NCBI RefSeq assembly: GCF_963921235.1
Contig: NC_086097.1
Location: 87,422,001 to 87,486,000 of the forward strand
Length of the DNA stretch: 64,000 nucleotides
Source of the DNA: Mobula hypostoma
Taxonomy: Eukaryota
Direction of reading: 5' to 3'
Below are positions 2,990 through 63,900 of this stretch, in pieces; position 1 is the first letter of the stretch; each line of letters opens with the position of its first letter. The notes under the pieces were generated by a model. That model did no database searches. It had not been told where the DNA came from and saw nothing but the letters and a program-made list of their open reading frames with translations. The position numbers and the translations under genes are program-made.

Positions 2990-4690
2990 GACCAGCAGGG
3001 AAAGTCTGGGTAACTACAGGCTGCTGACCATTATGTCAATGGTAAGGAAATTACTGGAGCAACTTCTAGGGGTAATATTTATGTACAATTTCATTGAGTT
3101 TTTTGAGGTGGGAAAAGAGGAGATTAATGAAGAGAGATTAATTAATTAATTTAATTTAATTAATTAAAAATAAAGATTAATGAAGAAGATGTGGTCCATA
3201 TGGACTTCAGTAAGGCATTTCAGTAAGGTCCTGCATGTTAGGCTGGTCCAGAAGATTAAGGCACATAGGATCCAAAGTGAGCTGACTAATAGGATCAAAA
3301 ATTGGCACGATGTTGGGAGGCAGTGGGTAGAGGCAGACCGACATTGTTTTCTGAATAGATGTCTGTGACCAGTGGCGTACCAAATGGATAAGTGATGAGA
3401 TTTTCGCTGTGATATATAAATGCATGTGAAAGTTGGAGATATTAGTAAATTTGCAGATTATATGAAAATTGTAGTATTGTGGATAGTGAGGAAGTTTTGA
3501 CTTAGTCTACAACAGGATCTACAGTAGATCAGGGAAAATTAAGTGGAACATTGGCAGACGAAATTTCCTCAACCTCCTAAACCCTGAGGAGGTATTGCTC
3601 CTCAGGATGGAAGAGCAGCAATTTATATTCCGTCTGGGTAGCCTCCAACCTAATGGCATGAATATTGATTTCTCCTTCCAGTAAAATTTCTCTCCCTCTT
3701 CTTCAATTCCCAACTCTGGCCTCTTACCTCTTCTCACCCACCTATCACCTCATAGATATCTTACCTCCCCCCCTCCATGTTCATTCTAGCATATTCCTCC
3801 TTCCTTTTCAGTCCTGAAGAAGAGCCTTGGCCCGAAATGTTGACTGTTTATTCATATTCATGGATGCTGCCTGACCTGCTGAGCTCCTCCAGCATTTTGT
3901 GTGTGTGCTTTGGAGATCCAGTATCTGCACAATTTCTTGTGTAGATGAAATTTAATCCCAAGGATTACAACATAATAGATTTTAATACATTGGGGTAGGA
4001 CATAAACAAAAATGGTACAAAGAAATGTTGATGAACATGAAGACTTTTGGGACCAAGTTCATTGTTCCCTGAAGATGACAACATGGGTGGAAAGGATGAT
4101 GATGAGGACATACGACATGTTTGCCCTCATACTGTAGGTCAGGGCATAGAATATCAGGATTTGATATGTTATGTTGCAACTTTGAAAACAATGGTTTGGC
4201 CAGACTCAGAATATTGTCCACCATTTTGGTTGCCACACTATAGGAAGAATGTGATGGGATTGAAGAGATTCACCAGCATGTTGCCTGGATTGGAAGACTA
4301 ATCATAGGGAGAGAATAGACAGGCGGGGCTTGGACATGTTTTCTTGGATTGACGAGGGACCTGACTAAATTATATAAGAATATGATAGTCAAACTATTTT
4401 TCCCATATTAGGGGTATCAAAAGCAAGAGGGAAAACATTTGTGAGAGGAAGGAGATTTGAAGAAGATTTAAAGGAGATCTGAGGCCTAGGTTTTATACAC
4501 AGAGAGTGGTTGATATTGAGAATGTGCTGCCAGAGGTGGATTCAGGTACAATAACTTAGAGGCATTCAGACAGATACTTAAATAGACAAGGCAAAGAATG
4601 ATAGAGTCCCAATGCAAGCAGATGGGATAAGTGTAAATAGGCAAAAAGGTCTGCATGGATATAGAGGGCTGAAAGGCATGTTTCTATGAC
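2990..4690 (+). mobile_element. CR1 LINE, decayed RT and 3' end
   Basis: Fragments GNYRL, YMDFSKAF.KV.H.RLVQKIKAH, SKFADY, RPDSEYC.FWLPHYRK, RFTSMLPGLE; many stops and frameshifts. Confidence 0.85.
3567..3942 (+). mobile_element. Penelope-like 3' end/pLTR fragment inserted in CR1, with decayed hammerhead motif at 3810-3845
   Basis: RMEEQQFIFRLGSLQPNGMNIDFS matches the end of ORF 48871-49626. AGAYGAAATTT is duplicated at 3556-3566 and 3943-3953. Confidence 0.88.
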
Positions 4691-5721
4691 TTTAGCTAAG
4701 GTGCAATTGAGCAGGCAGTCTGGATCACGGAGTTCAGTCTTTCAGCTTCCTGCTTACAAAGTGGCTGCTCGTCCCACAGAGTTGCTGTATATTGTTAAAC
4801 TATTAAATTCATAGGCGGGAGGGGGTTGTGTATGCATGAAATAGGAATCTTTATAGATGGTACTGAACGGTGTGTTTTTGAATATTTGATTTTACCTTTT
4901 AAGTTTTAATATTTTTTTGCCCTTTTTCTTTAGGCTGTGCCCTCTTGGACTAGTCCTTTCCAGTCAGTGGTGCAGTCAAGCAGTGGGCAGAGTGAAAGTG
5001 GCAAAGAAGGTGTGGACAGGCCCATTGATCAAGGTTTTCCCATTGAGGTGATGCCAGATGAAAGATAGTAAAAGCAAGATGCTCTGTGCCATTCTGGGAA
5101 TGTTCCAGAAACCCACAGCAGGAAGCTTTACCTGTTATTTATCACAACTCTTGTGATATGCAATCTGAGGAATAACGCTAAAACAAGCAGTAAGAATGTG
5201 AGATTTGCCGCTGTTTTGTTTTGCTTCCTTGTTGTTGCTTGCGTTGTCTTACTGAACACAATACAATGGGCATGCAATGTTGACGTTAGAATGTTGGCAC
5301 TGGAATGTGTGGTACACTTGCAGGCTGCCCCCATCACATTGATAGATAATGTTGGTTGTTTCTGCAAATGATGCATTTCGCTGTATGTTTCAATGTACAT
5401 GTGATATATAATTTTGAACCTGAATCAGAATTCAGGCTCACACACATGCCTGCACTCGTTTCATACCAAAAGTTAACATTGCGGCCTGGCTTAGATTCCT
5501 TGTCACAGAACCATTCCAGCTACTAACCTCTGCCACATCACACAGATTTTAGTCTCTTGCTCCACTGGGGAGACAGCTCATTTCAATGAGCTAGTCTGAG
5601 AAGACAACATATCTGACCAATGTCTAGGCAATGAAGCAATGTATCTTACTCTAATTGCAATTGTTCTTTAAATTTACAACTCACAGGATGATGAATGTTC
5701 CCAGAAAGGATTCAAAATTGA

Positions 5722-6235
5722 CCATAAGACCATAAAATCATAAGATATAGGAGCAGAAAAAGGCAATTTGGTCCATTAAATATGCTCCACCATTCGATTG
5801 CGGCTGATTTATTTTCCTTCTCAACCCCATTCTCCTGCCTTCTTCCCATAGCTTTTGACGTCCTTATTAATCAAGAATATATCAACCTCTGCTTTAAATA
5901 CATCCAATGGCATGGCCTTCATAGCCATCTGTGTCCATGAATTCCACAGATTCCCAACCCTTCAGCTAAAGAAATTCCACCTCTTCTCTGTTCTAAAAGG
6001 ACATCCTGTTCTGAGGCTGTGCCCTCTGGTCCTGGACAACCAAAAACATCCTATCCACGTCTACTCTATCTCGGCCCTTCAATATTTGATAGATCCCCCC
6101 CGCCCTCTAGTTCTCCTAAACCCAAGCAAGTACAGGCCCTGGACTATCAAATACCCTAATGCTTTAACCATTTAATTCCCACGATCATTCTCGTAAACCT
6201 CCTCTGGACTTTCTGAAATGCAAGCACATCCTTTC
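5722..6235 (-). mobile_element. CR1 LINE 3' end
   Basis: Starts with the GACCATAA tandem tail (reverse complement of the tail at ~47290). Body is homologous to 46864-47208. Confidence 0.85.
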
Positions 6236-6512: not shown

Positions 6513-8736
6513 AAGCGACAACTCGCGGATACCTCCTCTTATTTACCCTTCGATCATCACCCCACTAAGGAGCACCAGGCCATTGTCTCCCACACCATCA
6601 CCAACTTTATCAGCTCAGGGGATCTCCCATCCACTGCTACTAACCTTATAGTTCCCACATCCCGCACTTCCCGTTTCTACCTCCTACCCAGGATCCTCAA
6701 GCCTGCCTGTCCAGGTAGACCCATTGTCTCAGCTTGCTCCTACCCCACCGAACTCATTTCTGCATACCTCAACACTATTTTATTCCCCCTTGTTTAATCC
6801 CTTCCCACCTATGTTAGTGACACTTCTCACACTCTGAATTTTTTCAATGATTTTAAGTTCCCTGGCCCCCACCGCTTTATTTTCACCATGGATGTCCAGT
6901 CCCTATATACCTCCATCCCCCACCAGGAAGGTCTCAAAGGTCTCCACTTCTTTTTGGATTCCAGACCTAACCAGTTCCCCTCTACCGCCACTCTCCTCCA
7001 TCTAGCGGAATTAGTCCTTACTCTTAATAATTTCTCCTTTGGCTCCTCCCACTTCCTCCAAACTAAAGGTGTAGCTATGGGCACCCGTATGGGTCCCAGC
7101 TATGCCTGCCTTTTTGTTGGCTTTGTGGAACAATCCATGTTCCAAGCCTATACTGGTATCTGTCCCCCACTTTTCCTTCGCTACATCAACAACTGCATTG
7201 GCGCTGCTTCCTGCATGCACGCTGAGCTCATTGGCTTTATTAATTTTGCCTCCAACTTTCACCCTGCCCTCAAGTTTACCTGGTCCATTTCCGACACCTC
7301 CCTCCACTTTCTTGATCTTTCTGTCTCTACCTCTGGAGACAGTTTATCTACTGATGTCTACTATAAGCCTACTGACTCTCACAGCTATCTGGACTACTCC
7401 TCTTCTCACCCTGTCTCTTGCAAAAATGCCATCCCCTTCTCACACTTCCTCCATTTCCACCACATCTGCTCTCAGGATGAGGCTTTTCATTCCAGGACGA
7501 AGGAGATGTCTTTCTTTTTAAAGAAAGAGGCTTCCCTTCCTCCACCATCAACTCTGCTCTCAAGCGCATCTCTCCCAGTTCACGCACATCTGCTCTCACC
7601 CCGTCCTCCCGCCAACCCACTAGGAATAGGGTTCCCCTTGTCCTCACCTACCACCCCACCAGCCTCCGGGTCCAACATATAATTCTTCGTAACTTCTGCC
7701 ACCTCCAACGGGATCCCACCACCAAGCGCATCTTTCCCTCCCCCCCTTTCTGCTTTCCACAGGGATCACTCCCTACGCGAATCCCTTGTCCATTCGTTCC
7801 CCCCACCCCCCCATTCCTTCCCACCGATCTCCCTCCCGGCACTTTTCCTAGTAAGCGGAACAAGTGCTACACATGCCCTTACACTTCCTCCCTCACCACC
7901 ATTCAGGGCCCCAGACAGTCCTTCCAGGTGAGGCAACACTTCACCTGTGAGTCGGCTAGTGTGATATACTGCGTTCGGTGCTCCCGGTGCGGCCTTCTAA
8001 ATATTGGCAAGACCCAACGCAGGCTGGGAGACCGTTTCACTGAACACCTATGCTCTGTCCACCAGAGAAAGCAGGATCTCCCAGTGGCCACACATTTTAA
8101 TTCCATGTCCCATTCCCATTCTGATATGTCTATCCACAGCCTCCTCTACTGTCAAGATGAAGCCACACTCAGGTTGGAGGAACAACACCCTATATTCCAT
8201 CGGGTAGCCTCCAACCTGATGGCATGAACATTGACTTCTCTAACTTCCGTTATTGCCCCACCTCCCCTTCATACCGCATCCCTTATTTATTTATTTATTT
8301 ATTTATTAGTTTTTATTCCCTTTTTTTCCTCTCTCTCTCTTTTTTCTCCTCTCTCTCTTTTTTCTCCCTCTGTCCCTCTCACTACTTGCCTGCTCTCCAT
8401 CCTCTGGGATCCCCCACCCCTTTCTTTCTCCCTAGGCTTCCCGTCCATTGATCCTCTCCCTTCTCCAGCCTTGTATCCCTTTTGCCAATCAGTTTTCCAG
8501 CTCTTAGCTCCATCCCTCCCCCTCCTGTCTTCTCCTATCATTTTGAATCTCCCCCTCCCCCTCCCACTTTCAAATCTCTCACTAACTCTTCCTTCAGTTA
8601 GTCCTGACAAAGGGTCTCGGCCCAAAACATCAACTGTACCTCTTCCTATAGATGCTGTCTGACCTGCTGTGTACACCAGCAATTTTTGTGTGTGTTGCTT
8701 GAATTTCCAGCATCTGCAGATTTCCTTGTGTTTGAG
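6513..8736 (+). mobile_element. Penelope-like retroelement (Neptune-type), 5'-truncated, RT plus GIY-YIG plus pLTR; pseudogenised
   Basis: PGRPIVS, TMDVQSLYTSIP, QTKGVAMGTRMGPSYA, LRYINNC (YIDD decayed), FLDL, YYKPTD; GIY-YIG as VIYCVRCSRCGLLNIGKT...RFTEH. Contains stops and frameshifts. Confidence 0.95.
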
Positions 8737-10911: not shown

Positions 10912-12350
10912 TGTTGAACACACTGGAGAAGTCAAAAAACATGACCCTCACAGTGCTCGCTGGCTTGTCCAGGTGGACGTAGACACGGTTCAGCAGGTAG
11001 ACGATGGCATCCTGAACTCCCAGTCGGGGCTGGTAGGCGAACTGGAGGGGATCTAAGTGTGGCCTGACCATAGGCCGGAGCAGCTCCAGAACAAGTCTCT
11101 CCAGGGTCTTCATGATGTGGGAGGTCAATGCCACTGGTCTGTAGTCATTGAGGTCGCTGGGGCGCGGTGTCTTCGGCACCGGGACAAGGCAGGATGTCTT
11201 CCACAATACAGGAACCCACCAGAGCCTCAGGATAAGGTTGAATACATTGTGAAGTACTCCACATAGCTGAGGGGCACAGGCTTTGAGCACCCTGGTACAG
11301 ACACCATCCGGTCCTGCCGCCTTGCTGGGGTTGAGACGTTTCAGCTGTCTTCTTCACCTGTAGAGCTGTGAAGCCCACTGTAGTGGTTTCGTGTGGAGAA
11401 GGGGTATAGTCTTGAGAGCAGGGTGGGGGCCTGTGAGGAGGGGTAGGAGGGGAGAGTGGAATATGTGTTGGTTGGGGGCCGACAACAGATGGCTCATGCG
11501 TGGGATGGGCAGGGGCCACAATGTCAAATCTGTTAAAGAACAGGTTAAGTTCATTGGCCCTGTCCACACTGCCTTCAGCTCCTCTGTTGCTAGTTTGCCG
11601 GAACCCAGTGATGATCCCCATTCCCCTCCAGACCTCTCTCATGTTGTTCTGCTGGAGTTTCCACTCAAGCTTCCTCCTGTACCTGTTTTTAGCCTCCCTG
11701 ATCCTGGCTTTCAGGTCCCTCTGTATTGCCCTCAGCTCCTCTCTATTTCCATTTCTAAACGCCCTCTTTTTAGCATTCAGGATGTCCTTAATGTCCTTTG
11801 TCACCTATGGCTTGTTATTTGCATAACAAAGGACAGTTCTTGTCAGAACATTGCAGTCCACACAGAAGTTGATGTAATCAGTGATGCATTCTGTGAGCCG
11901 ATCAATATCCTCTCCATGTGGCTCACAGAGTGCCTGCCAGTCTGTCACCTCAAAACAACCCTGGAGCGCCTCATAAGCCTCCTCTGACCATTTCCTCACT
12001 GTCCTCGAGGTTACAGGTTTACTCTTCACCAGAGGCACGTAGCAGGGTTTTAGATGCACCAGGTTGTGATCTGACCTTCCCAGTGGGGGGAGGGGAGAGG
12101 AGCTGTATGCATGCTTAATGTTAGCGTACATCAAATCCAGAGCCCTCTCCCCTCTGGTTGTACAGCTCACATACTGCGTGAAGTTGGGCAGTGTTCTAGC
12201 CATGGTAACATGGTTGAAGTAACCCGAGATGGTAATGAGGGCACTCAGGTGCTGAGTTTGTAATCTGGCTATGACGGTGTAAATGATGTTACACACCAAC
12301 GTCGAGTTGGCAGAGGGAGGGATGTACACAACAACCACAATTGCATGCGA
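10912..12350 (-). mobile_element. Rex1/Babar LINE fragment (end of APE endonuclease to first half of RT)
   Basis: VYIPPS, GYFNH, LDLMY, LGRSDHNLV; LNDYRPVALTSHIMKTLER, DPLQFAY, FFDFSSVFNT. Nearly identical to 45213-45650 where they overlap. Confidence 0.93.
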
Positions 12351-17760: not shown

Positions 17761-19009
17761 TCAGATGCTGCGTGAATGCTGTAAAAGGATTGATTAAACA
17801 GTTTATTTGTATATTTACTTAAGCCACTGTTTACACTCACGATTGTGGAAAGTGAGGTGTATTGTAATTAATCTGCAGAATTCCTGTTGTTTGTATTGTA
17901 ATTAAGGAGCTTTTTATGTTTGGTGCAATTCGAAGACGTTATCCACAAGTATTGCTTGTGTTATGCGCGGGATGGATATTCAAATTCCCGATGAACTGCT
18001 ATTTAGAGTAAAATTATTGGGGAAAGTTACACTGGTTGAATGGTGTTATGACCAATCAGCTGGTAAGGATGTTGTGACTGAAGTTGTGCTGCCCATTAGG
18101 ATAGTGGCTCCCAGAGAGGTGGGGCCATGGCCAGTCCATATTTTTAAAGAAGGGTGTAATGTATCTGAGGGTGAAGACTTTAAAGACAAGTTGTTCTCAT
18201 TTCTGAGAAGTAAAGAAAAGGAGTTGTCTAATGTGAAAGATCTAATGGGTCCTTCAGTGGTTGATTTAAATTCTGAGCTAGTTTCCGCAATAACGTCACT
18301 GGTTGATAAATGGCGAAGTGTATGCAGAGAGCCAAAGTTATTGTAGGCTGCGAGTGTTCTGTGGAGTCAAGACCATCTCTGATGGGGAAGAAGAGTATGA
18401 GGCTTGGGTGTAGCAGGCAACTCTGTAACTGGATGAGTGGCAGTGCTCAAATTTGAAAAGACTGTGATTGGTAAAGGGTTTAAAAAGTCCAGCTGCTGAG
18501 GTGATGGCAGAAAAGGCAGAAACCCATTGGCCACGTCTGTGAACTACATGCAAGTGTTGGAAAATGTTTTTGACATGGTGGTCCTCCCTGCTAAACTTAT
18601 AATGAAATTGAGGCACACATTCCAGGAGAAAGGGGAGATACTTTCTGCCTACATTTTCAGGCTAGAGAGATAGCTGCATTGCTTGTGCCATAAGGGGGCT
18701 ATTCAACTGGTAGAGATAAATTGATTAAGGATGGCGCAAGCTGTGAAGGGCACACTGTCACATGACGTGATTGCTTTAAGCATTCAAATAACTTACAAGA
18801 CACGTCCCCCTCCCTTATTTGTTGAGCTGATCAGAGAAGTAAGAGAGGAGGAAACTATGATGGAGGAATGGGAGGCCTCCACCAGCTGGGTAATGTCCCC
18901 AGTAGTAGCCTCCATTGCTGAAGTGAGCCCTGATGCCACACAAGTGAGGGTTTTGCAAGATGAGGTGAAAAACAGGCAAACCAAGGTAACTTGGTTGATA
19001 ACAACAGGA

Positions 19010-19274
19010 ATTCTGCAGATGCTGGAAATTCAAGCAACATACATCAAAGTTGCTGGTGAACGCAGCAGGCCAAGCAGCATCTATAGGAAGAGGTACAGTC
19101 GACGTTTCAGGCCGAGACCCTTCGTCAGGACTAACTGAAGGAAGAGTGAGTAAGGGATTTGAAAGCTGGAGGGGAAGGGGGAGATGCAAAATGATAGGAG
19201 AAGACAGGAGGGGGAGGGATAGAGCCGAGAGCTGGACAGGTGATAGGCAAAAGGGGATACGAGAGGATCATGGG
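19010..19274 (-). mobile_element. Solo Penelope pLTR insert in gag
   Basis: Reverse complement of the 3' end of 48874-50019. ACAGGA flanks both ends (19004-19009 and 19275-19280). Confidence 0.93.
19097..19132 (-). ncRNA. Minimal type I hammerhead ribozyme motif (intact core)
   Basis: Minus strand reads AGTC CTGACGA AGG-GTCTCGG-CCT GAAA CG TC GACT. Confidence 0.8.
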
Positions 19275-19516
19275 ACAGGAGCTGTAGGACGTACTAAGTC
19301 AAGGAATGCTTTTGATGAGGGAAGCACCGGTATTTTCTGTTACAACTGTGGACAGGATGGACACTTCAAGTGGGAGTGTGAAGGACAGGAGAAGTAACCC
19401 AACAGTTGCTTAAACAAAAAAAGGAGGTCCAGAAACTTTGGTGGAACTCTGTAAGGAAACAGACTGGTGTCTTGCAGAGGACGCGTTCCAATCAGTATAT
19501 CAAGGGAAATACTAAA

Positions 19517-45212: not shown

Positions 45213-46747
45213 AACAGCTGAAACGTCTCAACCCAAGCAAGGCTGCAGGACCGGATGGTGTCGGTACCAGGGTGCTCAAAGCCTGTGCCCCTCAGCTATG
45301 TGGAGTACTTTGCCATGTATTCAACCTGAGCCTGAGGCTCGGGAGGGTTCCTGTACTGTGGAAAACGTCCTGCCTCGTCCCTGTGCCGAAGACGCCGTGC
45401 CCCAGCGGCCTCAATGACTACAGACTGGTGGCATTGACCTCCCACATCATGAAGACCCTGGAGAGACTTGTTCTGGAGCTGCTCCGGCCTATGGTCAGGC
45501 CACACTTAGATCCCCTCCAGTTCACCTACCAGCCCCGACTAGGAGTTGAGGATGCCATCGTCTACCTGCTGAACCGTGTCCACGCCCACCTGGACACCCA
45601 GCGAGCACTGTGAGGGTCATGTTTTTTGACTTCTCCAGTGCGTTCAACACCATCCGCCCTGCTCTGCTGGGGGAGAGGCTGACAGCGATGCAGGTGGATG
45701 CTTCCCTGGTATCATGGATTCTTGATTACCTGACTGGCAGACCACAGTATGTGTGCTTGCAACACTGTGTGTCCGACAGAGTGATCAGCAGCACTGGGGC
45801 TCCACAGGGGACTGTCTTGTCTCCCTTCCTCTTCACCATTTACACCTCGGACTTCAACTACTGTACAGAGTCTTGTCATCTTCAGAAGTTTTCGGATGAC
45901 TCTGCCATAGTTGGATGCATCAGCAAGGGAGATGAGGCTGAGTACAGGGCTATGGTAGGAAACTTTGTCACATGGTGTGAGCATAATTATCTGCAGCTTA
46001 ATGTGAAAAAGACTAAGGAGCTGGTGGTAGACCTGAGGAGAGCTAAGGTACCGGTGACCCCTGTTTCCAGCCAGGGGGTCAGTGTGGACATGGTGGAGGA
46101 TTACAGATACCTGGGGATACGAACTGACAATAAACTGGACTGGTCAAAGAACACTGAGGCTGTCTACAAGAAGGGTCAGAGCCATTTCTATTTCCTGAGG
46201 AAACTGAGGTCCTTTAACATCTGCCGGACGATGCTGAGGATGTTCTACGAGTCTGTGGTGGCCAGTGCTATCATGTTTGCTGTTGTGTGCTGGGGCAGCA
46301 GGTTGAGTGTAGCAGACACCAACAGAATCAACAAACTCATTCGTAAGACCAGTGATGTTGTGTGGATGGAACTGGACTCTCTGACGGTGGTGTCTGAAAA
46401 GAGGATGCTGTCTAAGTTGCATGCCTCCTTGGTCAATGTCTCTCATCCACTACATAATGTATGGGGTGGGCACAGGAGTACATTCAGCCAGAGACTCATT
46501 CCACCGAGATGTAGCACAGAGCGTCATAGGAAGTCATTCCTGCCTGTGGCCATCAAACTTTACAACTCCTCCCTTGGAGGGTCAGACATCCTGAGCCAAT
46601 AGGCTGGTCCTGGACATTTCATAATTTACTGGCATAGTTTACATATTACTATTTAACTATTTATGGTTCTATTACTATTTATTATTTATAGTGCAACTGC
46701 AATGAAAACCAATTTCCCCCGGGATCAATAAAGTATGACTATGACTA
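45213..46747 (+). mobile_element. Rex1/Babar LINE, 5'-truncated, young (one frameshift near 45600)
   Basis: ORFs 45149-45613 and 45610-46602 cover the RT (KAAGPDG, DFSSAFNT, GAPQGTVLSP, KFSDDS, YRYLG). Tail AATAAAG(TATGAC)n. Confidence 0.95.
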
Positions 46748-46834: not shown

Positions 46835-47300
46835 CATGAGATGGGTTAACATATGAGATACGTTTGTCCGCTCTTGGACTGTATTCCTTGGAGTTTAGAA
46901 GAATGAGGGGAGACCTCATAGAAACACTTCGAATATTAAAAGGCATGGACAGAGTGGATGTGGCAAAGTTGTTTCCCATGATGGGGGAGTCTGGTACGAG
47001 AGGGTATGACTTAAGGATTGAAGGGCGCCCATTCAGAACAGAAATGCGAAGAAATTTTTTTAGACAGAGGGTGGTGAATCTATGGAATTTGTTGTCATGG
47101 GCAGCAGTGGAGGCCAAGTCATTGGGTGTATTTAAGACAGAGATTGATAGGTATCTGAGTAGCCAGGGCATCAAAGGTTATGATGAGAAGGCAGGGGAGT
47201 GGGACTAAATAGGAGAATGGATCAGCTCATGATAAAATGGTGAAGCTGACTCGATGGGCCGAATGGCCTACTTCTGCTCCTTTGTCTTATGGTCTTATGG
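46835..47300 (+). mobile_element. CR1 LINE 3' end
   Basis: LGLYSLEFRRMRGDLIE, RNFFRQRVVNLWN; tail TCTTATGGTCTTATGG. Confidence 0.92.
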
Positions 47301-48873
47301 AATTGTGGTATTTGGTTTCAACATGGCTTTCTGGCATGAGTAATTACAAATATCAGGAATGTGAGAAACCAGAGCAAGCAAGTCCTTCTACCCCATTCTG
47401 CCACTTATTATGAACATTGTTGATCTTCTACCCAAACACTGTTTTCTAACTCTATTAACATAATCATTAATGTCCAGAAATCCTTCGTCACCTGCTTCAA
47501 ATGAATACGTCAGCACAACTTCTATGGCTGTACTTCCCAACCCTTGTCTTTCATACCTTTACATAAAAACCATTTTAAAAAATTTAAAATACAGTGCACA
47601 GTGCAGGAAAACAGGAGCCGCAAATTTAAAGCAAATAATTGCAAAAAACTATTCAAATCTTTTTAAAGGTACAAATAAAATTATTTAATTACAATAAAAC
47701 AATTTTCATCAACAATATTAGAGCATACATTAATAGTCCAACTATTCACTACTTCATTGCTTTTTCACGTTTCAATGAGATGGATGGGTTTGATGCAATA
47801 ATATCAGCTTCTCAACACTCAGGAGTCTTTGATCCCCATATTAACTCTGTTTTGCTGCTTTGAAAGAAGTTGGGTGACTGCACTGAAACCGCACACCACT
47901 AACTATGATGTTGGAAAGGCAATAAAGAATATATTGACCTTTCGCCACAGTGCAGAAGATCATTCAGAGATTTCTTTCTATAACCATAAGTGTTGATATG
48001 ATTTTTTGAAGCTCGGTTTCAACTCAGTCATTTCGTAGTGAAATCATTTCTTCCTCATCCTTCCTGTTAATTCCTCATTACAACTGTTCAGGAAAGGATT
48101 TATTACCCAATCTGGAAGTTTGATTGAGAGAAGACCTTGAAATCTCACTGATATGTGTTTATGTAAATCACACAGGTGGGTACAGTATATTTGAAGATAA
48201 TCTGGTATTCTTACTTTCTCTTCCAACTCAGAGGTTTGGAAATAGGAAAAGGTCGCAATGGCTGTTGCCCTTAAACAGGATTAACTTGGACAGAAATGTG
48301 GAGATGATTGATTTGATTTTGATAAGGTTCATGTCATTTTCTTGCATTTGAAGACTGATTTCATTAAACTTTGCAGGTAATTCTGCAAATAAGCAATCTC
48401 ATGCCTAATATTCTTGAGTTGATTACTGAATGAAGCATTCAAGTCTTCAGAGGATTTTATTTTAGTTTCAAAAAGTGCATAAAAACATCTCAGGCACTTT
48501 CCTTTTGAGAGTCATCTGACTTCTGTGTGCAACAGCAGGCGTTCAAACTGTTCATCGTTCTCAATACAAAGCTCTCAAAATAGTCAAAAATTGAGAACAT
48601 GGGACTTGAATTTACTTTGACAACAGTATTTAATGATTTGTATAGCCAATCACTTAGGTTTTATTCTGGCAAGACATTGTCTGTGAATTACACAGTGAAT
48701 GGTAAATATGTTAGGTACAGCTTCAGCTTGTTTTCAAAATAGAAATAACCCTATAGTGGTATCCTGTCATTGATGGTGCCCCACTCTAGTGCACAACCAA
48801 GAATGGTGGTGAGCAGAATGTCATTCTCCTTGAAAAATTGCTCAACAACCCAAAATATTAACTCCCTCTTTTG

Positions 48874-50019
48874 ATGAGGGAGATGTCTTCCTTTTTTAAA
48901 GAAAGGGGCTTCCCTTCCTCCACTATCAACTCTGCTCTTAAACGCATCTCCCCCATTTCATGTACATCTGCTCTCACTCCATCCTCCCGCCACCCCACTA
49001 GGAATAGGATTCCCCTGGTCCTCACCTACCACCCCACCAGCCTCCGGGTCCAACATATTATTCTCCTTAACTTCTGCCACCTCCAACAGGATCCCACCAC
49101 TAAGCACATCTTTCCCTCCCCGCCTCTCTCTGCATTCCGCAGGGATCGCTCCCTACACAACTCCCTTGTCCATTCGTCCCCCCCATCCCTCCCCACTGAT
49201 CTCCCTCCTGGCACTTATCCGTGTAAGCGGAACAAGTGCTACACATGCCCTTACACTTCCTCCCTTACCACCATTCAGGGCCCCAAACAGTCCTTCCAGG
49301 TGAGGCAACACTTCACCTGTGAGTCGACTGGGGTGATATACTGCGTCTGGTGCTCCCGATGTGGCCTTTTATATATTGGCAAGACCCGACGCAGACTGGG
49401 AGACCGCTTTGCTGAACATCTACACTCTGTCCGCCAGAGAAAGCAGGATCTCCCAGTGGCCACACATTTTAATTCCACATCCCATTCCCATTCTGACATG
49501 TCTATCCACGGCCTCCTCTACTGTAAAGATGAAGCCACACTCAGGTTGGAGGAACAACACCTTATATTCCGTCTGGGTAGCCTCCAACCTGATGGCATGA
49601 ACATCGACTTCTCTAACTTCCGCTAAGGCCCCACCTCCCCCTTGTACCCCATCTGTTACTCATTTTTATGCACACATTCTTTCTCTCACTCTCCTTTTTC
49701 TCCCTCTGTCCCTCTGAATATACCTCTTGCCCATCCTCTGGTTCCCCCCGCCTTGTTTTTCTTCCCGGACCTCCTGTCCCATGATCCTCTCGTATCCCCT
49801 TTTGCCTATCACCTGTCCAGCTCTTGGCTCTATCCCTCCCCCTCCTGTCTTCTCCTATCATTTTGGATCTCCCCCTCCCCCTCCAACTTTCAAATCCCTT
49901 ACTCACTCTTCCTTCAGTTAGTCCTGACGAAGGGTCTCGGCCTGAAACGTTGACTGCACCTCTTCCTACAGATGCTGCTTGGCCTGCTGCGTTCACCAGC
50001 AACTTTGATGTGTGTTGCT
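48874..50019 (+). mobile_element. Penelope-like element 3' part (open 251 aa linker plus GIY-YIG ORF, and pLTR)
   Basis: ORF 48871-49626: FKERGFP, YPCKRNKCYTC, VIYCVWCSRCGLLYIGKT, RFAEH, PDGMN. 11 bp TSD TCCCTCTTTTG at 48863-48873 and 50020-50030. Confidence 0.95.
49920..49955 (+). ncRNA. Minimal type I hammerhead motif, cleavage triplet GUU
   Basis: AGTC CTGACGA AGG-GTCTCGG-CCT GAAA CG TT GACT. Confidence 0.72.
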
Positions 50020-50971
50020 TCCCTCTTTTGTATCTGTTTCTAGTCCCCTTGCAAATAACAACTCTTGAACCATGCTTTAATTTTTCATGAAGCAAAGATT
50101 TTTGCCTGACAAAGTTGACTCATCCAACTGAAGAACGAATTCTGTTGTCTTCCACATTGTCAAACATTTCATCTACTCATCTTTAAACAGAGTTATCGCA
50201 GAGTAGAATTGCCTTAATTATTTGGTCTGGTGACTTATGTAAAATAGCCTCCCTTACTGACGGTGGAATCAGTTCTTCTCCAATTGTATGGGTCTTTCCA
50301 GACTCATCAACATCAACAAAATGTTGTATGAAGCATGCAAACTATCACAGTCCCTCACTCCAGGGCACATAACTACTCAATGCTCTCTGCAATCTCCTGG
50401 CCCTCTCCGATGAGTACTTTAATTTTTTTTAAAAATTACCTTTCTTCTCTTTGTTCACTCTCTTACCATGACTCTCCCTCCACACCGGTCCATAACCTCA
50501 CCAATTTCCCTGGTTACTGTAACACCAACCAATCCCACTTTTGCTGCAATGCACAATTTTGGCCAACAGTTTTGTCACTCACCACATGATTCCACTTACA
50601 TCATCACATTGTTGTAATGGCTCAATTTAACCCAGTCTTTTCAAAGAAAAATTTCCCATGGCGCCCTAGAGACCTTGCGCACATTTAAAATAATACTTTT
50701 CTTAAATTAAGCCTATAATCTCTCAGACTGGGCCTCCCCCCTGCCCCCACCACTGCTCCCTTTATTTTTTTTGCCTCCTTGGAAACTTCCAATGCCCCCA
50801 GGAAGGCAATATCACTCACATTGCCAATCAATAAATAGAATCTATGGGACTGTGAAATGCAATGAAGAAATTTTACCTCATCTCAAAATGCCTAAGGAAG
50901 AGGAAATTGGCATGAGATTTTTCTAAGTCTCTCCTTTGCTTTATTAGTAGTATCAGACTTGTGTAGTTATA

Positions 50972-51120
50972 ACATAGATGGCGAGGCCTCGAGCTGCTCA
51001 GCAGGCTTGGTGGATTCGTTCTGATGAAGGGCCTCAATCTGAAATTCTGACTGTCCATTGCCGTGCATAGAGGCAGTTCGACCTGCTGAGTTCCTCCGGC
51101 TCGTTTGTGTGTTGTTCATT
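50972..51120 (+). mobile_element. Diverged Penelope pLTR fragment with degenerate hammerhead
   Basis: CTGATGA AGG GCCTCAA TCT GAAA TTCT GACTG...CCTGCTGAGTTCCTCC. Confidence 0.7.
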
Positions 51121-52654: not shown

Positions 52655-53705
52655 CCACATAAAGAGTGGGAATAAACGGGACCTTTTCAGAATGGCAGGC
52701 AGTGACTAGTGGGGTACCACAAGGCTCAGTGCTGGGACCCCAGTTGTTTACAATATATATTAATGACTTAGATGAGGGAAGTAAATGGAGCATCTCCAAG
52801 TTTGCGGATGACACTAAGCTGGGCGGCAGTGTTAGCTGTGAGGAGGATGCTAAGAGGATACAGTGTGACTTGGATAGGTTAGATGAGTGGGTATATTCAT
52901 GGCAGATGCAATTTAATGTGGATTAATGTGGTGGCAAAAACAGGAAAACAGATTATTATCTGAATGGTGGCTGATTAGGAAAAGGGGAGGTGCAACGAGA
53001 CCTGGGTGTCATTGTACACCAGTCATTGAAAGTGGGCATGCAGGTACAGCAGGCAGTGAAAAAGGCGAATGGTATGCTGGCATTCATAGCAAGATAATTC
53101 AAGTACAGGAGCAGGGAGGTACTACTACAGTTGTACAAGGCCTTGGTGAGACAACACCTGGAGTATTGTGTGCAGTTTTGGTCCCCTAATCTGAGGAAAG
53201 ACATTCTTACCATAGAGGGAGTACAAAGAAGGTTCACCAGATTGATTCCTGGGATGGCAGGATTTTCATATGATGAAAGACTGGATCGACTAGGCTTATA
53301 CTCGCTGGAATTTAGAAGATTGAGGGGGGATCTTATTGAAATGTATAAAATCCTAAAGGGATTGGACAGACTAGATGTAGGAAGATTGTTCCCGATGTTG
53401 GGGAAGTCCAGAACGAGGTGTCACATTTTAAGGATAAAGGGGAAGCCTTTTAGGACCAAGATGAGGAAAAACTTCTTCACACAGAGAGTGGTGAATCTGT
53501 GGAATTCTCTGCCACAGGAAACAGTTGAGGCCAGTTCATTGGCTATATTTAAGAGGGAGTTAAATATGGCCCTCGTGGCTAAAGGGATCGGGGGTATGGA
53601 GAGAAGGCAGGTACAGGGTTCTGAGTTGGATGATCAGCCATGATCATACTGAATGGCGGTGCAGGCTTGAAGGGCTGAATGGCCTACTCCTGCACCTATT
53701 GTCTA
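52655..53705 (+). mobile_element. CR1 LINE 3' part replacing the L1 3' region
   Basis: SGVPQGSVLGPQLF, KFADDTKL, LEYCVQFWSP, RRLRGDLIE; tail CTATTGTCTATG. Confidence 0.93.
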
Positions 53706-54138
53706 TGTTTCTAAGGGTATTTCACATCTAAAGATGTCTTGTAGGGCATTGTGTATCCCACTCCAATAGTCTTTGATAACGGGGCATTCCCAGAAAATAT
53801 GATAATGGTCTGCATTTTGATTTCCACAATTTCGCCAGCAAACAGGGAGGCTACTTTCATAATGGGATTTCTGAGAGGGTGTAATAAAATATCCTATCAA
53901 GTTTTTCCACCTGAACTCCCTCCATTTCTGTGAACTGGTACACTTCCATTGATACCTCCATATTATTGTCCATTCTTCCTCAGATATTATTATCCCTCCT
54001 TCCTTCTCCCATTTTGTTTTAATGTATGAAGTCGAATGTGTTTTAAGATTTGACAAACCCTTATACACGCTTGAAATTATTCTACTACCGTTGTCTGAAT
54101 TATATGCTTTTCTAAATAGCTCTATCAGACATGTACTT

Positions 54139-54243
54139 CCTTCAGTTAGTCCTGACGAAGGGTCTCGGCCTGAAACGTCGACTGCGCCGCTTCCTATAGA
54201 TGCTGCCTGGCCTGCTGCGTTCACCAGCAACTTTGATGTATGT
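54139..54243 (+). mobile_element. 105 bp Penelope pLTR mini-insert in L1 ORF2
   Basis: TACTT is duplicated at 54134-54138 and 54244-54248. Removing the insert restores L1 NVTKASTCLIELF. Confidence 0.92.
54148..54183 (+). ncRNA. Minimal type I hammerhead ribozyme motif (intact core)
   Basis: Stem I AGTC/GACT; CTGACGA 54152-54158; stem II AGG/CCT; GAAA 54172-54175; GUC cleavage triplet ending at 54179. Confidence 0.8.
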
Positions 54244-54847
54244 TACTTGCCTTGGTTACATTTCTAACCATCCTATTAACATACTGTCGCATCTGTAAAT
54301 ATCGATAAAAGTCTTGTTTTTCTAATAAGTGTTTCTCTTTGAGCATTTCAAAACTGAACAGTGTTCCTTCTTTCATTATATTGCAAATAGCTGTTATTCC
54401 TTCAACTGTCCAGTCCTTAAATCTAGCATCCAGTATGTTTGGTGTAAAATCCGAGTCATATGCACACCATTTAAGGATTGCAATGTCTCTCTCTAGTTTA
54501 TATTCTTTTATAATAGTTTTCCATATTTTGAGTCCATTTCACCCATGGGTTATCAATAGTATTTAAGCAACTTTGTAGGTTGTTATCAACCAAAATTGCC
54601 TATATGGGGATGTAAAGTATCCTCTCCTCAATGTTTTTCCATTGAGCGTCATATGACGGGTTGCACCAGCATATCACAACTCTCAATTGTGCTGCAAAAT
54701 AATAATCTCTAAGAGAAGGTAGGCCCCATCCCCCTTTTCCTTGGCTAATTGCAAATTTTTGAGATGAACTCTAGGTCTTTTACCTTGCCATATGTATCTT
54801 GATAGCATCTTGTTCAATTCATTGAATTGATTTTAGTTAATCTCTAT

Positions 54848-55449
54848 TAACGCTCAGCTGTATCGGCTCGTATATCGGACTAGGGGAAACCCCATCCGCC
54901 GCCCAACCTTGTCTCTCGGTTACGTCGGTTGCTGTGCAATGCCGCCTGATACGGCCTCAAACATCAAATATCAGACAGCACACAATGTACATTTTACAAA
55001 TTACACTTTATAAATCTTACTAGGACTAGGAGATTAATAGAGGTACAATACAAAAGGGAATGAAAAAAAAGGCACCAGATTTATCAAAGTTCAATGTGTT
55101 CATGCACACAGTTGGAGCTCGGGACCTTCCTTCTTCACCCTGCGATCCACTCCGACCCACTTGACTCGCAGCTCGGAACCACCGGAAGTGATCGACCAGC
55201 GCACTCCCAGCACTTCTGTCTTCCTCCCGGTCTCTCCTCCAACTCCCCGCCAAAACCCCCGTTTCCCAGCCATATGAGACAGCATATCACCCAAAGAAAG
55301 AATAACATGGACACCCATTGGTTCATTTGCTCTCTTATCAATAGATAACCCAAACAAACCGCAGCGAGAGAACCTTCTCAGCATTTAACATCACAATGAA
55401 GACATTTTGATTAACATACACAGTAACATAAAAGAAGAAATCCCTTACA
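54848..55449 (-). mobile_element. Probable solo LTR inserted in L1 ORF2
   Basis: GC-richer ~600 bp block splitting LFQTLP/IEIN. Minus strand starts TGTAAGGG and ends GCGTTA; the final CA and a TSD are not clear. Confidence 0.7.
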
Positions 55450-58400
55450 GTAGGGTCTGAAAGAGATATAGTAGTCTGGGCAGTATATTCATTTTAATAG
55501 ATTCAATCCTTGAACTGAGACCAAGAAAAGAAATCAGGTTCCATCTTGTTATATCTTCCTTAATTTTTTATATATAGGCTGATAATTGCATTCTGATAAT
55601 TTTGCCAAATCTTTTGGCATAGTGATGCCCAAATATTTGACGGACTTTGTTTGCCATGCTCAAGGATATCTGCTTTCAATTTCTCTTGGTGGGCTATAGT
55701 TATATGAAAGTAATTGGGTTTTATCTATGTCGATCTTGTATCCTGATAATTGGCCATATTGTTCAATAGATTGCATCAACTTAGGTAAAGAGTATGTTGG
55801 TTGCCCCAGATAGATCAAAATGTCATCCATGTAACAGGCCAATTTGTGCTCTGTCCCTTTAATAGTAATTCCCCTGATATCTTCATTTTGTCTGATGTAT
55901 TGAGCTAATGGTTCCAAATATAATGCGAAGAGTAGCGGTGACCATGCACAACCCTGTCTCGTGCCCCTTTCTAGGGTAAAACTATTAGATAAATATCCAT
56001 TGATTTTAATCCTAGCAGTAGGATTCTCGTATAGTGCCTGTATAGTTTTAATAATTGTGTCATGTAGACCAAATCTATGTAAAACTCTTGTAAAGAAAAA
56101 TCCAATTAACTGAATCAAATGCCTTTTCAGCATCCACGCTTATCACTATTGCTTCAATTTCATTTTTCTATATGATCCATAATGTGAAGTGTCCTTCGTA
56201 TATTGTCTTGTCTTTGGCGTTGTTGTATAAAACCTGTCTGATCATTATGTATCAGTGTGGGTAGAAACTCTTCTAATCGTTTGGCCATAATGGAGGTAAA
56301 TATTCTATAATCCACATTAAGAACAGTTATTGGTCTAAATGACTCACATTCCATGTTATCCTTGCCTTCTTTCGGTAGAGCTGAGATTATCGCCTCCTTC
56401 CAGCTGGGTGGCATTTGCGCCTTTCTCAGGGCCAAGTTCAGTGTGGGGAGTAAAACAGGAATTAACTCATTTCTAAATTCCCTATACCACTCTGCGGTAT
56501 ATCCATCTGATCCTGGTGACTTGCTTAATTTAAGCCTACTAATTGCAGTTTTTAGTTCAGCTTCAGTTATGTCAGCAGTCATCATGTTATTTTGTTCTTT
56601 GCTTAAAGTGGGTAACTCTAAACAATTCAGGAAGGTGTCAATCTGGGCTATGTTTCCCCTTGGAGCTTTGGAATATAGAGTTTTGTAAAACATTTCAAAA
56701 GCTTCTTGAATTTCACTTAGCTTATTTTTTATCACTTTTGTTCTTGGATCCCTAATTCTATGAATTGTATTTCCTGTTTTCATTTTTTTCAGTTTCCACG
56801 CCAGTATTTTCATAGATTTAGATCCACTTTCATAGTGTCTCTGTTTCAGAAACATTAATTTTTTTCTAATTTCTTGTGTAGCCAAATTATTAATTTAATT
56901 CCTAATTTTTAAAATTTCCTCTTGTGTATCCTGTTCCAAACTCAATTTGTGTTTTTTTCTAGTTCCTTGAGCTTATTTTGTAATTCCTTTAATGTTTTAT
57001 TCCTTTTTTTTATATGAAGTTATCACTATAATTTTCCCTCTTAAGACAGCCTTCATAGTATCCCATAAAATGGGAAGTGAAGCCTCTCCATTATCATTGA
57101 ATTCTAAGTAAAGTCTAATTTCTTTTTTAATTTGTTCCTTAAAATAGAAATCATTGAGTAGACTTGAATTTAGTTTCCAAGTAGTATTCTTTGGTTGTAG
57201 GTCAAAATCAACAGATAAATATATAGGTGCATGGTCACTTACATCTATTGTCCTACTCAAAAAGAGTGTTAACTTTCTTATGTAAGGACTTCGTTTCATA
57301 AATTTTTTTACTGGAAGAGTCTAGCTTCGGTTGTAACCGTAAATTTAAGTCTCCCCCACATATCAAGAAACCTTCTGTTTCCGTTACCATAATATTAGTA
57401 ATTTTCTGGAAGAAACTACATCACTTCCTGTGAGTCCGTATATATTCAATAAAGTAACTGGATTTCCATCTATGTTCCCCCTTACCAGAATATATCTGAC
57501 ATCCTTATCTCCCATTTCGAATACTTTTTCAAAAGTTAGTTTGCTTGAGATGAGAATAGCAACTCCTCGTTTATGTCCTGATTTATATGAGGAGAAAAAC
57601 AAATTAGTGAAGCCCATTCTCTTTAATTTTCCATGCTCATTATCACTTAAGTGAGTTTCCTGTAAATATACTACATGGGCATGTTCTTTTTTTCATTTTT
57701 GATAGAATTTTACTTCGTTTGATTGGATTTAACAGCCCATTGACATTAAAAGAAATGAATTTTACTTTGTCCTTAGCCATGTGTATTTATCTGTTAGTAT
57801 ATCATTGAAATTTGCAAAATATAACTTAATCAATCTACTCCCTGAACAAATAAGAACCAAGAAACAGGAATAATAAAAAAAAAGGTAACGAAGGTGTGAT
57901 TCCAAGGCTGGGGTCTCTAGATGTCCCTGGGTTGAGGTAGAGGAAATGTCCAGCCGTGGGGGATAGCTCTTCCTAGTTGAGGGCCCCCGCTGCAGTATCT
58001 ATAAAAGTAATTTAAAACATCTATGTCCATTACACAGAAATGATTTCCCTGTGTATTCCCCCCATATATATGTATTCTCATTTAGGTGGGAAAAAAGGAG
58101 TGAATGAATGAATAAAACAAATTGAGTAATATAAAATCCACATTATAATATGTATTTCTTGAGATAAGTATATCACCATCTATTTTTGCTGCCGTTCAGT
58201 TTATCAGCACTTTTAAAGTTAGCCAAACCTTATGGCTCTTCTGGAGAGGTGGGAGCTGTCTTCAGAGAATCCACAGTCTCTTTCTAATATCCTTCCCTTG
58301 TCCTCCTCCCGTCCCCTGCTTTCTCGGTTCCCTTACTATTTCCCCAGCCAGTCTTTCTCTTGGTTTGACCATGCTAACAGGCAGTCCTCTGTTCTTCATG

Positions 58401-60416
58401 TCTGTAGTCACCTCTTCCACTGTCTGATATAGCTTTATCTCTCCTTTGTAAAATACTTTCAGTTTAACGGGGTACCGGGTTTGGAATTTAATCTTTTCTT
58501 GCTTTAATATTTGTTTCACTTCGGAATATTCCTTCCCCTTCTGTAGGACAACCGGGGGGGTAATCATGATCGAAATATATTAACTTCCCGTTCCAAAACA
58601 CCCTCTTCTTACCCCAGGCCCTTCGTAGAATCTCCACCTTGCTCTTGAATCGAAGGAATTTAAGTACTATTGAGCGCAGCTTACTTTCTCTGTCTCCGGG
58701 AGGCCTCTGGACAATCGCACGGTGCGCCCTCTCAATTTCAATCTCCTTAGTCAGGGGAATCTCCAGCGCGTCCCGCAGCAGCTTTTCTACAAACTCCGTC
58801 ATCGACAATCCTTCCGTTCCTTCAGGAACATTATAAATCCTGATATTTTTCTTTCGCGATCTTCCCTCTTGGTCAAGCAATTTACTTTCCTGTTGATTTA
58901 ATATTTTTATCATCTTACTTAGTATCTGTTCCACGTTTTCCACGCAACCTTCCACCTTCTCAATTCAAGTCTCTGCCACCGCTACTTTCTGATTGACGTT
59001 GGCGAGCTCTGACTTGATATCATTGAGTTGCTGCTTTATATCTTTTTGGACTTCCCTAATCTCTTCCAAAATCCTCATCATATTTGCCGCTTCACCTGAA
59101 TGAGACCCAGCGTCAGCTTCGCCACCACGCACACGTGTAGGAGAGCCGCGCGTTGTACCTCTCTCTTCCATAGGCTCTGCAGTGATGCTTTTTTTTATCT
59201 CCATTCTTGCCCCCCTTATCAATTCAGATGTTTTCAAAGATCTTATATTTGATGGATTAACGGGGCAAAATATGTGTTTTTCCGGAGGAGCTGTTGATTT
59301 AAGCTGCCATTCTGGACGATGACATCACCAGAACCCACTATTCTAAAATTCTAATATGCATACAAGGCTCAGGAGAACCCAGCAACAAATTCTAACTGGA
59401 ACGTTGAGCTTTACCTTAGTGTTAAAGCACCCACCTTACAGGTCCCACTGCCAGAGAACCCAAGACTGACCAGACTGGTAAATTTCCATTATTACTGAGA
59501 ATCACCTCTCCGCCAAAATCCCATCACTAGTGATGACTCTACCCCAAATATCCTGCCCCTTGTACTTCTCTGGCTTCATTCACATTTTTCAAACCTTACA
59601 ATAATACAGCTCTTTAATTAAATGTTCAATCACCATTCCTGATTTTCTGCCAATCACTTGCTCCATTTATCCTCTTAAGGAACTTAAGATACTTTCTATG
59701 TTAGAAGGTCAAATTATTCCATTTCTGATTCTATCAATCAAATAATTCCTTGCTGGATCGGCACAATTAACAATTTATTTATCTTGGCACGTTTCTCACC
59801 AACACAACTCAGAGGCACTATTTCTAGTCCATTTGTGCTCTGAGAATGTTTGTTATTCTTAAGCTAACATTGATTAATAAGGAAATCCTTTGCAGCTTTG
59901 ATATGGTGAAGTTATCTAAAATCAATTCCCCATGGAGAGAAAATCCTTGGTTTTCTACAAAAGTACACCCAGGTTTTATTTAATAAGCTATGCAGATTCT
60001 ATTCCATATTGAGTTCATGTTGTTGCAAATTTAATAAATGTACAGAGAGGGAAATGAATGATTTGTGCTTAATTTAAAATCAGACAATTATGTGTCAGAA
60101 ATGTTTACAAATCTTATGATGGTTCAAGCTGGTAGTAGGAGAGAGGTATATGGCAGAAATGAACTATCTTAGCAGAAAGAACTGTTTCATGCCTTCCACT
60201 AGCTCCTTAGTACTAATTAGTTTGCATCCCAAAAGTAATTTTTTACTGTAGTTTGACTTTTTATCTATAGCTTCGTATATCATCATTGCTAGTGGTATGA
60301 ATGATAGCAGCCTTAATTTTTCTTCTGTTATAGGTTCCAACAGAAAATCAAAGCCTTTGCAGTCCGCAGCTTGGTATGTGTATATTTGAGAAACCATTGC
60401 AAAACAGTATCAGTAT

Positions 60417-61015: not shown

Positions 61016-61848
61016 ATATGATTTATACATAAGTTATACAAGATAAAAACTTGGCACATATTCGAGACTAACAAAGTTTTATGAGCACTTAGAACAAATG
61101 CACGGTAGACAGGGTGATGAAGAAGGTTTCTGAAGTACTGATCTTCATCAGACCAGAATCTGGGATGTTATGTTGCAGCTGTACAATATGTTGGTGAGGC
61201 TGCATTTGTAATACTGTATTGTGATCAGATTTTGGTTACCCTGCTCCAGCAAGGTTGTCATCATCCTGGAAAGAGTGCAGAGGAGATTTACAGGGATGTT
61301 GCCAGGATTCAAGGGATGAGAAGCTTGGTCCTTATGGGTTTCTGTGCTTTATGGCTCTATTTGTGAAAATGAGCAGCTACTGGAAACCTAAAGCTGATAC
61401 AGAAAGCATTGAAAACATGCAGCATCTGCAGGGAGTGAAATGGAGTTAATATTTCAGAATTGGAAGAAGTTAGTATATTGACCAGTTTATAAGGACCAAG
61501 CATAAAAATGTGAGGTAGTGAGGACAGATGTGTGGGAAATGGGATGGTCATGATCATAGTGGCAAGGAATTCTGCATTGGAGGGGAAGGACATGTATCAA
61601 ATGAAATAAATGTATCCAATAATTTTAAAAAATGGTAGAATGAAATTGAGTCCTTATAGAAAGTAAATCGTGAGGGTATAATTGCGTAAGCTGTGGGAAT
61701 CAGTGGATTGTAGACAATGGTGGACAACCATGTGCAGAACTAGAGAGGGAGAGGTCAGTGAAAAGCTACATGAAAGCAAGAAAGCGAGTACAAATGCAAG
61801 CAAACATGTTGATATTTTTCATCTTGGGAAGACAGGAGGTCAATGAAG

Positions 61849-62036
61849 CTAACACACAAAAAATGCTGGAGGAACACAGCAGGCCAGGCAGTATCTATGG
61901 AAAAAAGCACAGTCAGCATTTCAGCCCGAAATGTCGACTGTACTTTTTTCCATAGGTGCTGCCTGGCCTGCTGAGTTCCTCCAGCATTTTGTGTTTGTTG
62001 CTTGGATTTTCAGCATCTGCAGATTTTCTCTTGACT
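61849..62036. mobile_element. Palindromic insert made of two inverted pLTR halves
   Basis: Arms ~61852-61922 and ~61928-61998 are reverse complements. GAGRTCAATGAAG is duplicated at 61836-61848 and 62037-62049. Confidence 0.85.
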
Positions 62037-63049: not shown

Positions 63050-63900
63050 GCCACCAGAAATTGCACATGATGGAACTGGGAGGAATTAAACAGCAGAATA
63101 AATCAGTGGATTGAGCAGCATCTGTGAGAGTAAAGGAATCGTCAGTGTTTTGGGTCAAAATCATGCAAAGGACTAAGAGAGGAAATGGGAGTTACCTCAA
63201 ATAAAGAGGAGAGGAGGAGTGGTGAGGCAAGGCCAGAGGTGCTTGGTGCATAGAGGTGGGGTGAAGAATGATGGACAGATTGAGACAGGTAGTGGAGGAG
63301 AGGTGGAACTGGAAGTCAGAGGTAATGGGTGAAGTATATTGGGCAGATCAAGCCAAGTAAAGGAGGAGGCGTATTGGAGATGGGAGACAAAAGCATGTGG
63401 ATGGTAGATGGAGGCAGACAAATAAAAGAGGAAGGGAGTAAAATTGGGGGAGGGGAGCTAGGAGAGTGATAAGCAGGTACAGAAAAGTAGTAGTCTGATG
63501 CAGAACATGATGATGGGAACAATTAGGAGAGAGGTAAATGGCGGATGGAACCAGAACAAGAGAGGAGAGGGGAGAACCAAATGCTGAAGTAGGTGGAGGG
63601 AACTAGGATTGGGAGAGAAAAAAAATGGGTGATGGGGTCTGGGGTATGTTTAGAAAAGGGGGCAAAACTGAGAGGGCTAAAGGGTAATTAGATGGAGGAG
63701 GGAAGGGAATGGGAGAACACACCAGAGCTGAGACTTACCCAAAAATGGAAAATTAAATGTCATAACATTAGGTTGTAGAACACTGGCCGTGGAGAATGAT
63801 GTGAGAATAGGAGAAATTGATGTGAGAAATTGAAGAAGTATTCAACTGGGAGCTCAGCCTGGCCACTGCAGAAAGAGCAGAAAGAGTAGAGACTGGTCAG
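63050..63900 (-). mobile_element. Old Penelope-like 3' end/pLTR
   Basis: Purine-rich tract; minus-strand LQPNVMT matches the ORF end; degenerate pLTR at 63050-63180. Confidence 0.6.

Follow-up and report, generated by a model that had tools for sequence, protein, structure and literature searches.

A 105 bp hammerhead-bearing insert in an L1 of Mobula hypostoma: probably a 5′-truncated end of a Penelope-like element

Introduction

Minimal type I hammerhead ribozymes are described from the pLTRs of metazoan Penelope-like elements (PLEs), among them fish Neptune, Poseidon and Xena; the published motifs did not cleave as monomers and cleaved weakly as dimers (PMC4209133). Solitary minimal hammerheads derived from truncated PLEs have already been described (PMC4209133; bioRxiv 10.64898/2026.07.22.740005), and most PLE insertions are 5′-truncated and keep a single terminal repeat (bioRxiv 10.64898/2026.07.22.740005). 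In PAc, the Poseidon element of Anolis carolinensis (Frangieh et al. 2024, PMC11167929), the ribozyme needed protein and was dispensable for insertion, and the start of reverse transcription needs no homology to the target. A search of mostly open literature, covering the main text of preprints, returned no paper that deals with the ray PLE family considered here, nor one that describes a constant 5′ end at the hammerheads of PLEs.

The locus described here is a 105 bp insert in Mobula hypostoma, within a window of 64,000 nt (NC_086097.1, positions 87,422,001 to 87,486,000) that was analysed as a whole. Its hammerhead motif has in common with the published minimal hammerheads (PMC4209133) the type I core without loop 3, the palindromic pair 15.2–16.2, a helix I of 4–5 bp and, following A9, a base left unpaired; dispersed solitary copies are described there too and are ascribed to truncated PLEs. 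It differs in its short helix II (4 bp), which has a G-U first pair in this subfamily. As in PAc, there are two 3′ ends 30–40 nt apart, a ribozyme about 60–100 nt upstream of the 3′ ends, an AT-rich target and a template left uncut at the ribozyme. In contrast to PAc, a CX2-5CxxC linker, absent from Poseidon, is found here, and the tailless junctions of the insert and of a longer copy (copy B) show short target matches that PAc does not need in vitro.

Animal non-LTR retrozymes (PMC7229834; bioRxiv 10.64898/2026.07.22.740005) are likewise pLTR-related and equipped with a type I hammerhead, and they are non-coding, as the insert may be, whereas the insert is a single unit with a single ribozyme, is not in tandem and is collinear with an autonomous element. 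Solo ‘monomers’ of retrozyme families are also listed (bioRxiv 10.64898/2026.07.22.740005). Schistosoma hammerhead SINE-like elements are, like the insert, short retroposed units with a hammerhead, but a promoter precedes their ribozyme (PMC6765202), while in the insert stem I has no more than 9 nt of the parent in front of it. By the features tested, the insert is a truncated PLE end with a minimal hammerhead, ordinary in kind.

The insert and its L1 host

54139..54243, + strand: the insert, made up of the final 105 nt of a Neptune-type PLE that lacks the tail; 96% identical to copy C, 94% to copy B and 85% to copy D
54134..54138, + strand: left copy of the target duplication, TACTT, which shares its three final nt with upstream element sequence (microhomology)
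54244..54248, + strand: right copy of the target duplication, TACTT; like the element's own next bases (TGCTT)
53688..57780, − strand: host L1-type ORF2, frameshifted, whose relatives carry an APE endonuclease and a reverse transcriptase (tblastn with P0007; RVT_1)

The closest intact relative of the host ORF2 is P0007 (1267 aa, with reverse transcriptase and endonuclease domains), residues 1–1180 of which match the host from 57780 to 53688 in tblastn pieces mostly of 77–91% identity. Removing 110 bp, that is the 105-bp insert and one TACTT, puts the host ORF2 back in a single frame and brings P0007 residues 1031 and 1032 side by side. Thus, the 5-bp target duplication is genuine and the insertion added exactly 110 bp. 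The first-pass annotation had placed a 105-bp insert in L1 ORF2 between TACTT repeats; its coordinates are exact, the duplication is real and the host ORF2 is dead.

The 5′ junction shows a 3-nt CTT microhomology with the element, and at the 3′ junction TACTTG stands against the element's TGCTTG, a 5-of-6 match. Since both TACTT copies overlap element-like sequence, each boundary of the insert is soft by 3–6 nt. A loose likeness of the left flank to the element sits in host coding sequence and was taken as chance.

The host L1 as a whole (53688–59324, − strand) has, among 9 matches, a sole named close relative from a cichlid fish (72% identity over a 143-aa query), and unnamed relatives reach 84% identity. 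Such similarity is high for a cartilaginous-fish host and is possibly a sign of horizontal transfer.

The hammerhead motif

54147..54184, + strand: minimal type I hammerhead motif, with a predicted cut after 54179
54147–54151 with 54180–54184, + strand: stem I
54160–54163 with 54168–54171, + strand: stem II, with A54159 unpaired
54175–54178, + strand: palindromic ACGT (helix III)
54148–54151, 54152–54158, 54172–54175, 54176–54179 and 54180–54183, + strand: motif words AGTC, CTGACGA (core), GAAA, CGTC and GACT, respectively

A perfect minimal type I core followed by about 60 nt had been read in the insert, and this stands: all core bases are intact and 64 nt follow the predicted cut. Likewise, the 5′ end, put at about 9 nt upstream of stem I, was measured at −9. 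A minimal-hammerhead descriptor (helix I, CUGANGA, helix II, GAAA, palindromic pair, UH) found three sites in the window (54148, 49920 and 19132) and none in 200 dinucleotide shuffles. An Rfam scan of the window returned no hammerhead family; its sole match, mir-2131 (E=0.11, below its threshold), is spurious and comes from a fold-back copy (copy F).

Stem II as given above is more likely the better drawing than that of the first-pass annotation, the revised hairpin scoring −2.0 versus −1.1 kcal/mol, with 22/24 versus 15/18 paired cells over six copies. The published minimal-hammerhead consensus also has an unpaired base after A9 (PMC4209133). Covariation in the helices was not seen in the six copies (no two-sided changes, no excess over shuffles), and the unit did not fold more stably than expected (z=+1.16), with 178 of 200 shuffles doing as well.

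Energy models, which ignore tertiary contacts and help from protein, prefer inactive folds: they give a stem I pair probability of about 0.04 in the unit, pair the core of the isolated motif with its cut-site strand, and assign −12.9 kcal/mol to the active dimer but −31.7 kcal/mol to the dimer of lowest energy. A lone motif is predicted not to cut, because helix III has no loop and forms only between two copies through the ACGU palindrome. The insert spans the predicted cut, with 41 nt before it and 64 nt after it, and so the template was continuous across the site and the 5′ end of the insert was not made by this ribozyme.

The parent element and its copies in the window

48874..50020, + strand: copy B, 1.15 kb, 5′-truncated and tailless, with the linker and the end of a GIY-YIG ORF; ~11-bp duplication
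48862–49626: ORF of copy B, ending in a GIY-YIG domain
19000..19281, − strand: copy C, ~280 bp, 5′-truncated, with tail and intact core
6518..8732, + strand: copy D, running from a broken reverse transcriptase through GIY-YIG and the 3′ region into the tail; its 5′ end is an approximation
3601..3942, + strand: copy E, older subfamily, tailed
51016..51116, + strand: copy G, older subfamily, ~100 bp, tailless, starting near stem I
61846..62034, no strand assigned: copy F, an insertion folded back into two arms, of which one has the tail; its ~11-bp duplication contains 1 mismatch
63052..63261, − strand: copy H, decayed and matching this 3′ region weakly (nhmmer E=0.0012)

A profile search of the window found eight insertions of the wider family, one of them weak (copy H); three further matches (E 0.29–0.67) were dropped. 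The insert aligns without gaps over all 105 nt to copies C (96%), B (94%) and D (85%). Copy B runs 1.04 kb further upstream into an ORF with a GIY-YIG domain (E=1.5e-4, 22.5 bits against a Pfam cut-off of 22.6), and copy D runs upstream into a broken reverse transcriptase, its 5′ end having been read by eye from the translation (the protein match begins at 6888). The reverse transcriptase (RT) and endonuclease (EN) parts in D and B are collinear against P0001–P0005, full-length relatives being 750–950 aa.

At residues 121–129 of the ORF of copy B lies a CX4CX2C linker. A CX2-5CxxC linker between RT and EN is a mark of Neptune and Nematis PLEs (PMC8557442). Judged by this linker, which both clades share, the parent is an EN+ PLE of Neptune/Nematis linker type. 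The insert had been taken for a PLE pLTR segment from a parent of this kind, and its 94–96% match to the 3′ ends of longer copies, part of which are still linked to the GIY-YIG ORF, confirms this. Named close relatives of the element come from rays and sharks. Exact-pattern scans for further flanked copies gave no matches in viral, metagenome and prokaryote genome contigs, and a second copy of the 105-bp unit was not found within the window. An inverted two-armed insertion (copy F) is present in the window and a full-length pLTR-ORF-pLTR copy is absent there.

Copy B is flanked by its ~11-bp duplication at 48863–48873 and 50019–50029, and in public sequencing run X1 a joint that skips copy B (depth 83) represents the empty host site. 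The fold-back of copy F turns inside the ribozyme.

5′ and 3′ ends of the copies

54213..54229, + strand: small hairpin directly upstream of the tailless 3′ terminus

Relative to stem I, the 5′ ends lie at −9 in the insert, about −1046 in copy B, about −149 in copy C and beyond −1700 in copy D; in the older direct copies they lie at −210 (E), −125 (H, a weak match) and −2 to −16 (G). Within the window, a start near the 5′ end of the insert is thus shared by none of the three close copies and one of the three older direct copies. The end of this one, copy G, is ambiguous by 14 nt, and the chance of one such neighbour among five is 0.17–0.36 under simple exponential length models with copy H left out.

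The 3′ ends take one of two positions ~33 nt from each other, with four tailless (the insert, B, G and the reverse arm of F) and four tailed (C, D, E and the forward arm of F). The ~33-nt 3′ extension is the known PLE tail; in PAc, the tail lies between two RT start sites (PMC11167929). The hairpin before the tailless end is a possible RT-start signal. It was drawn partly from a bacterial promoter scan, the promoter calls of which are inapplicable to Mobula hypostoma.

Public sequencing contigs over copy B

Contigs of 4 public runs (of 24) were mapped on copy B. Two DNA runs gave at least 281,673 and at least 153,322 contigs, which is not a copy number but indicates that the element family is very abundant. 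The 3′ boundary including the tail appears as a loose end in all four runs (433, 312, 85 and 56 contigs). No loose 5′ end at 49908–49911, the position at which the insert starts, is among the 24 of 4,098 loose-end rows listed, the ranking of which is unclear. In run X1, summed depth amounted to 7.4–9.5 million over the unit, compared with 6.1–7.5 million immediately before it and 9.1 million where the ORF ends; a clear step at the 5′ position of the insert was not seen in that run, although assembled contigs lose detail. Contig ends and depth speak weakly against a dominant fixed-end family and are compatible with a minor one.

Element depth in runs guessed to be RNA was rejected as start-site evidence, as it follows sequence conservation, and joints ending at 49920 in run X12 were rejected as splicing for want of GT-AG ends. 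One X1 contig (depth 181) jumps back within copy B from window position 49948 to 49909, 5 letters separating the two points. It thus contains a unit of ~45 nt, with most of the ribozyme core, repeated head to tail, which could be the seed of a retrozyme-like array.

Open frame and gene models

The first-pass annotation saw no coding sequence in the insert, which is less certain: one frame is open through the whole unit in three of the four close copies, and in other PLEs the first codons of the ORF lie within the pLTR. The peptide of this frame matches 2 of 167 proteins (2 of 4 candidates), P0016 and P0017, both host gene models. It was found in none of the N-termini of 15 long relatives, which are too distant (34–46%) to decide the ORF start.

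In P0016 (Mobula hypostoma), the match extends from exactly the first codon of the insert to the tailless end, with unrelated flanks. If the model is contiguous DNA, this hints at a second copy with the ends of the insert. Such a copy weighs against plain truncation, since random truncation would give it only rarely. In P0017 (Mobula birostris), the match begins at the point expected from splicing at the CAG whose last base is 54145, and this fit to acceptor use suggests that PLE copies may have been exonised in ray genes.

The segment 54139–54150 holds a stretch of pyrimidines closed by CAG immediately ahead of stem I; it resembles a splice acceptor, is similar to a D. virilis intron end and overlaps a donor-like word. 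Ray and shark gene models with PLE-derived sequence include P0001, P0016, P0017 and P0003. One such model bears the name of a kinase-domain isoform and consists mostly of PLE ORF, and P0003, from the zebra shark, ends in what resembles a translated hammerhead region.

Origin of the insert

The insert is most probably, with a probability of roughly 70%, a 5′-truncated tailless PLE copy and not a mobile ribozyme in its own right. This reading is based on its identity to the 3′ end of the element, the target duplication, the scattered 5′ ends, the two 3′ ends and the uncut template. By analogy with PAc, a GIY-YIG domain would have nicked the AT-rich target site. Reverse transcription would then have started at the inner (tailless) site, perhaps aided, unlike in PAc, by the target matching the RNA at 5 of 6 positions, and would have passed through the uncut hammerhead and halted after ~105 nt. 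The cDNA end would have been joined through the 3-nt CTT microhomology; joins of this kind are described for a rotifer PLE (PMC3846280). The insert is likely to be unable to move again, and its hammerhead is predicted to be a passenger.

The first-pass annotation had instead proposed a minimal ribozyme retroposon mobilised in trans. As the sequence of the insert is the 3′ end of a long element, a separate retroposon of this sort is not supported: the unit is collinear with the parent, lacks a 5′ module, and is neither tandem nor permuted. The 5′ ends of the window copies are scattered, the pattern named beforehand as speaking against a ribozyme retroposon. A self-propagating, non-autonomous 105-bp unit, with its own transcription and moved by PLE protein in the manner of a SINE or retrozyme, is therefore improbable. 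The clean duplication and intact core would suit it, as would a pair of neighbouring private substitutions (54186 and 54189), diagnostic in principle; pLTR-derived non-autonomous retrozymes do exist in vertebrates (bioRxiv 10.64898/2026.07.22.740005), and in a rotifer pLTR cis sequences were enough for mobilisation in trans (PMC3846280). But a SINE-like module or promoter of its own, absent from the parent, was not found, the 105 nt aligning to the parent without gaps, and the window holds no second copy of the unit. Nor were tandem units with two or more ribozymes found, a single unit standing between the host duplications, whereas published retrozymes are tandem arrays with mostly canonical ribozymes (PMC7229834; bioRxiv 10.64898/2026.07.22.740005). 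Being single, unpermuted and continuous across the cut site, the insert is not a retrozyme monomer, and a lone copy with no second cut site would not be expected to undergo double cleavage to a monomeric RNA. The unit also ends before the tail, while a PAc template must reach well past the RT start (PMC11167929). P0016 fits the frame of such a family but cannot show shared diagnostic bases.

A preferred stop in cis is unlikely, but less easily set aside. RT primed in the 5′ pLTR would run off the RNA 5′ end or stall just before stem I, yielding many dead ~105-bp copies with nearly identical ends, none of them self-propagating. Bases 54142–54147, which resemble an initiator consensus, would suit such a start, yet the insert begins 5 nt before the initiator-like A. 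The insert, copy G and probably the copy behind P0016 all begin within ~10 nt of stem I, although the end of G carries its 14-nt ambiguity and P0016 is one gene model. For PAc, it has been shown that RT initiates internally and that the RNA 5′ end determines how long the insert is (PMC11167929), and PLE promoters lie in the pLTR (PMC2377424; PMC6765202); the D. virilis start, however, lies 46 nt before a 75-bp intron ending at helix I, well upstream of the ribozyme (PMC2377424; PMC4209133), and none of the 24 loose ends listed (of 4,098) is a 5′ end at this place. A speculative though not negligible reading is that copies of this PLE tend to end just ahead of the hammerhead, RT primed in the 5′ pLTR running off the transcript start, and that some of the resulting inserts may have become a self-propagating, ribozyme-headed family. 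If true, the ~105-bp inserts would preserve in the genome cDNAs of the ‘strong-stop’ type; they would reveal where transcription starts and account for the abundance of solitary minimal hammerheads. Later shortening of a longer insertion by deletion or recombination is very improbable: solo pLTRs formed in this way are described, though without duplications (PMC3846280), whereas here the host frame is exactly restored, both TACTT copies are intact and the deletion would have to end inside the 5′ junction of the insert.

As a truncated copy, the insert is one among very many truncated PLE ends and matters little as it stands. It is a tidy example in that the host frame fixes its junctions to the base and shows a template uncut at its own ribozyme. 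A fixed 5′ end genome-wide, if true, would bear on the role of PLE hammerheads and on the origin of retrozymes from pLTRs.

Other repeats in the window

Other LINE-like repeat fragments lie at 53098–53704, 46889–47287 and 5721–6000, one of them adjoining the 3′ part of the L1; they have no Pfam match and are presumably CR1-like. Additionally, a 440-bp repeat pair occurs at 10909–11348 and 45214–45652, in opposite orientation and with 94% identity.
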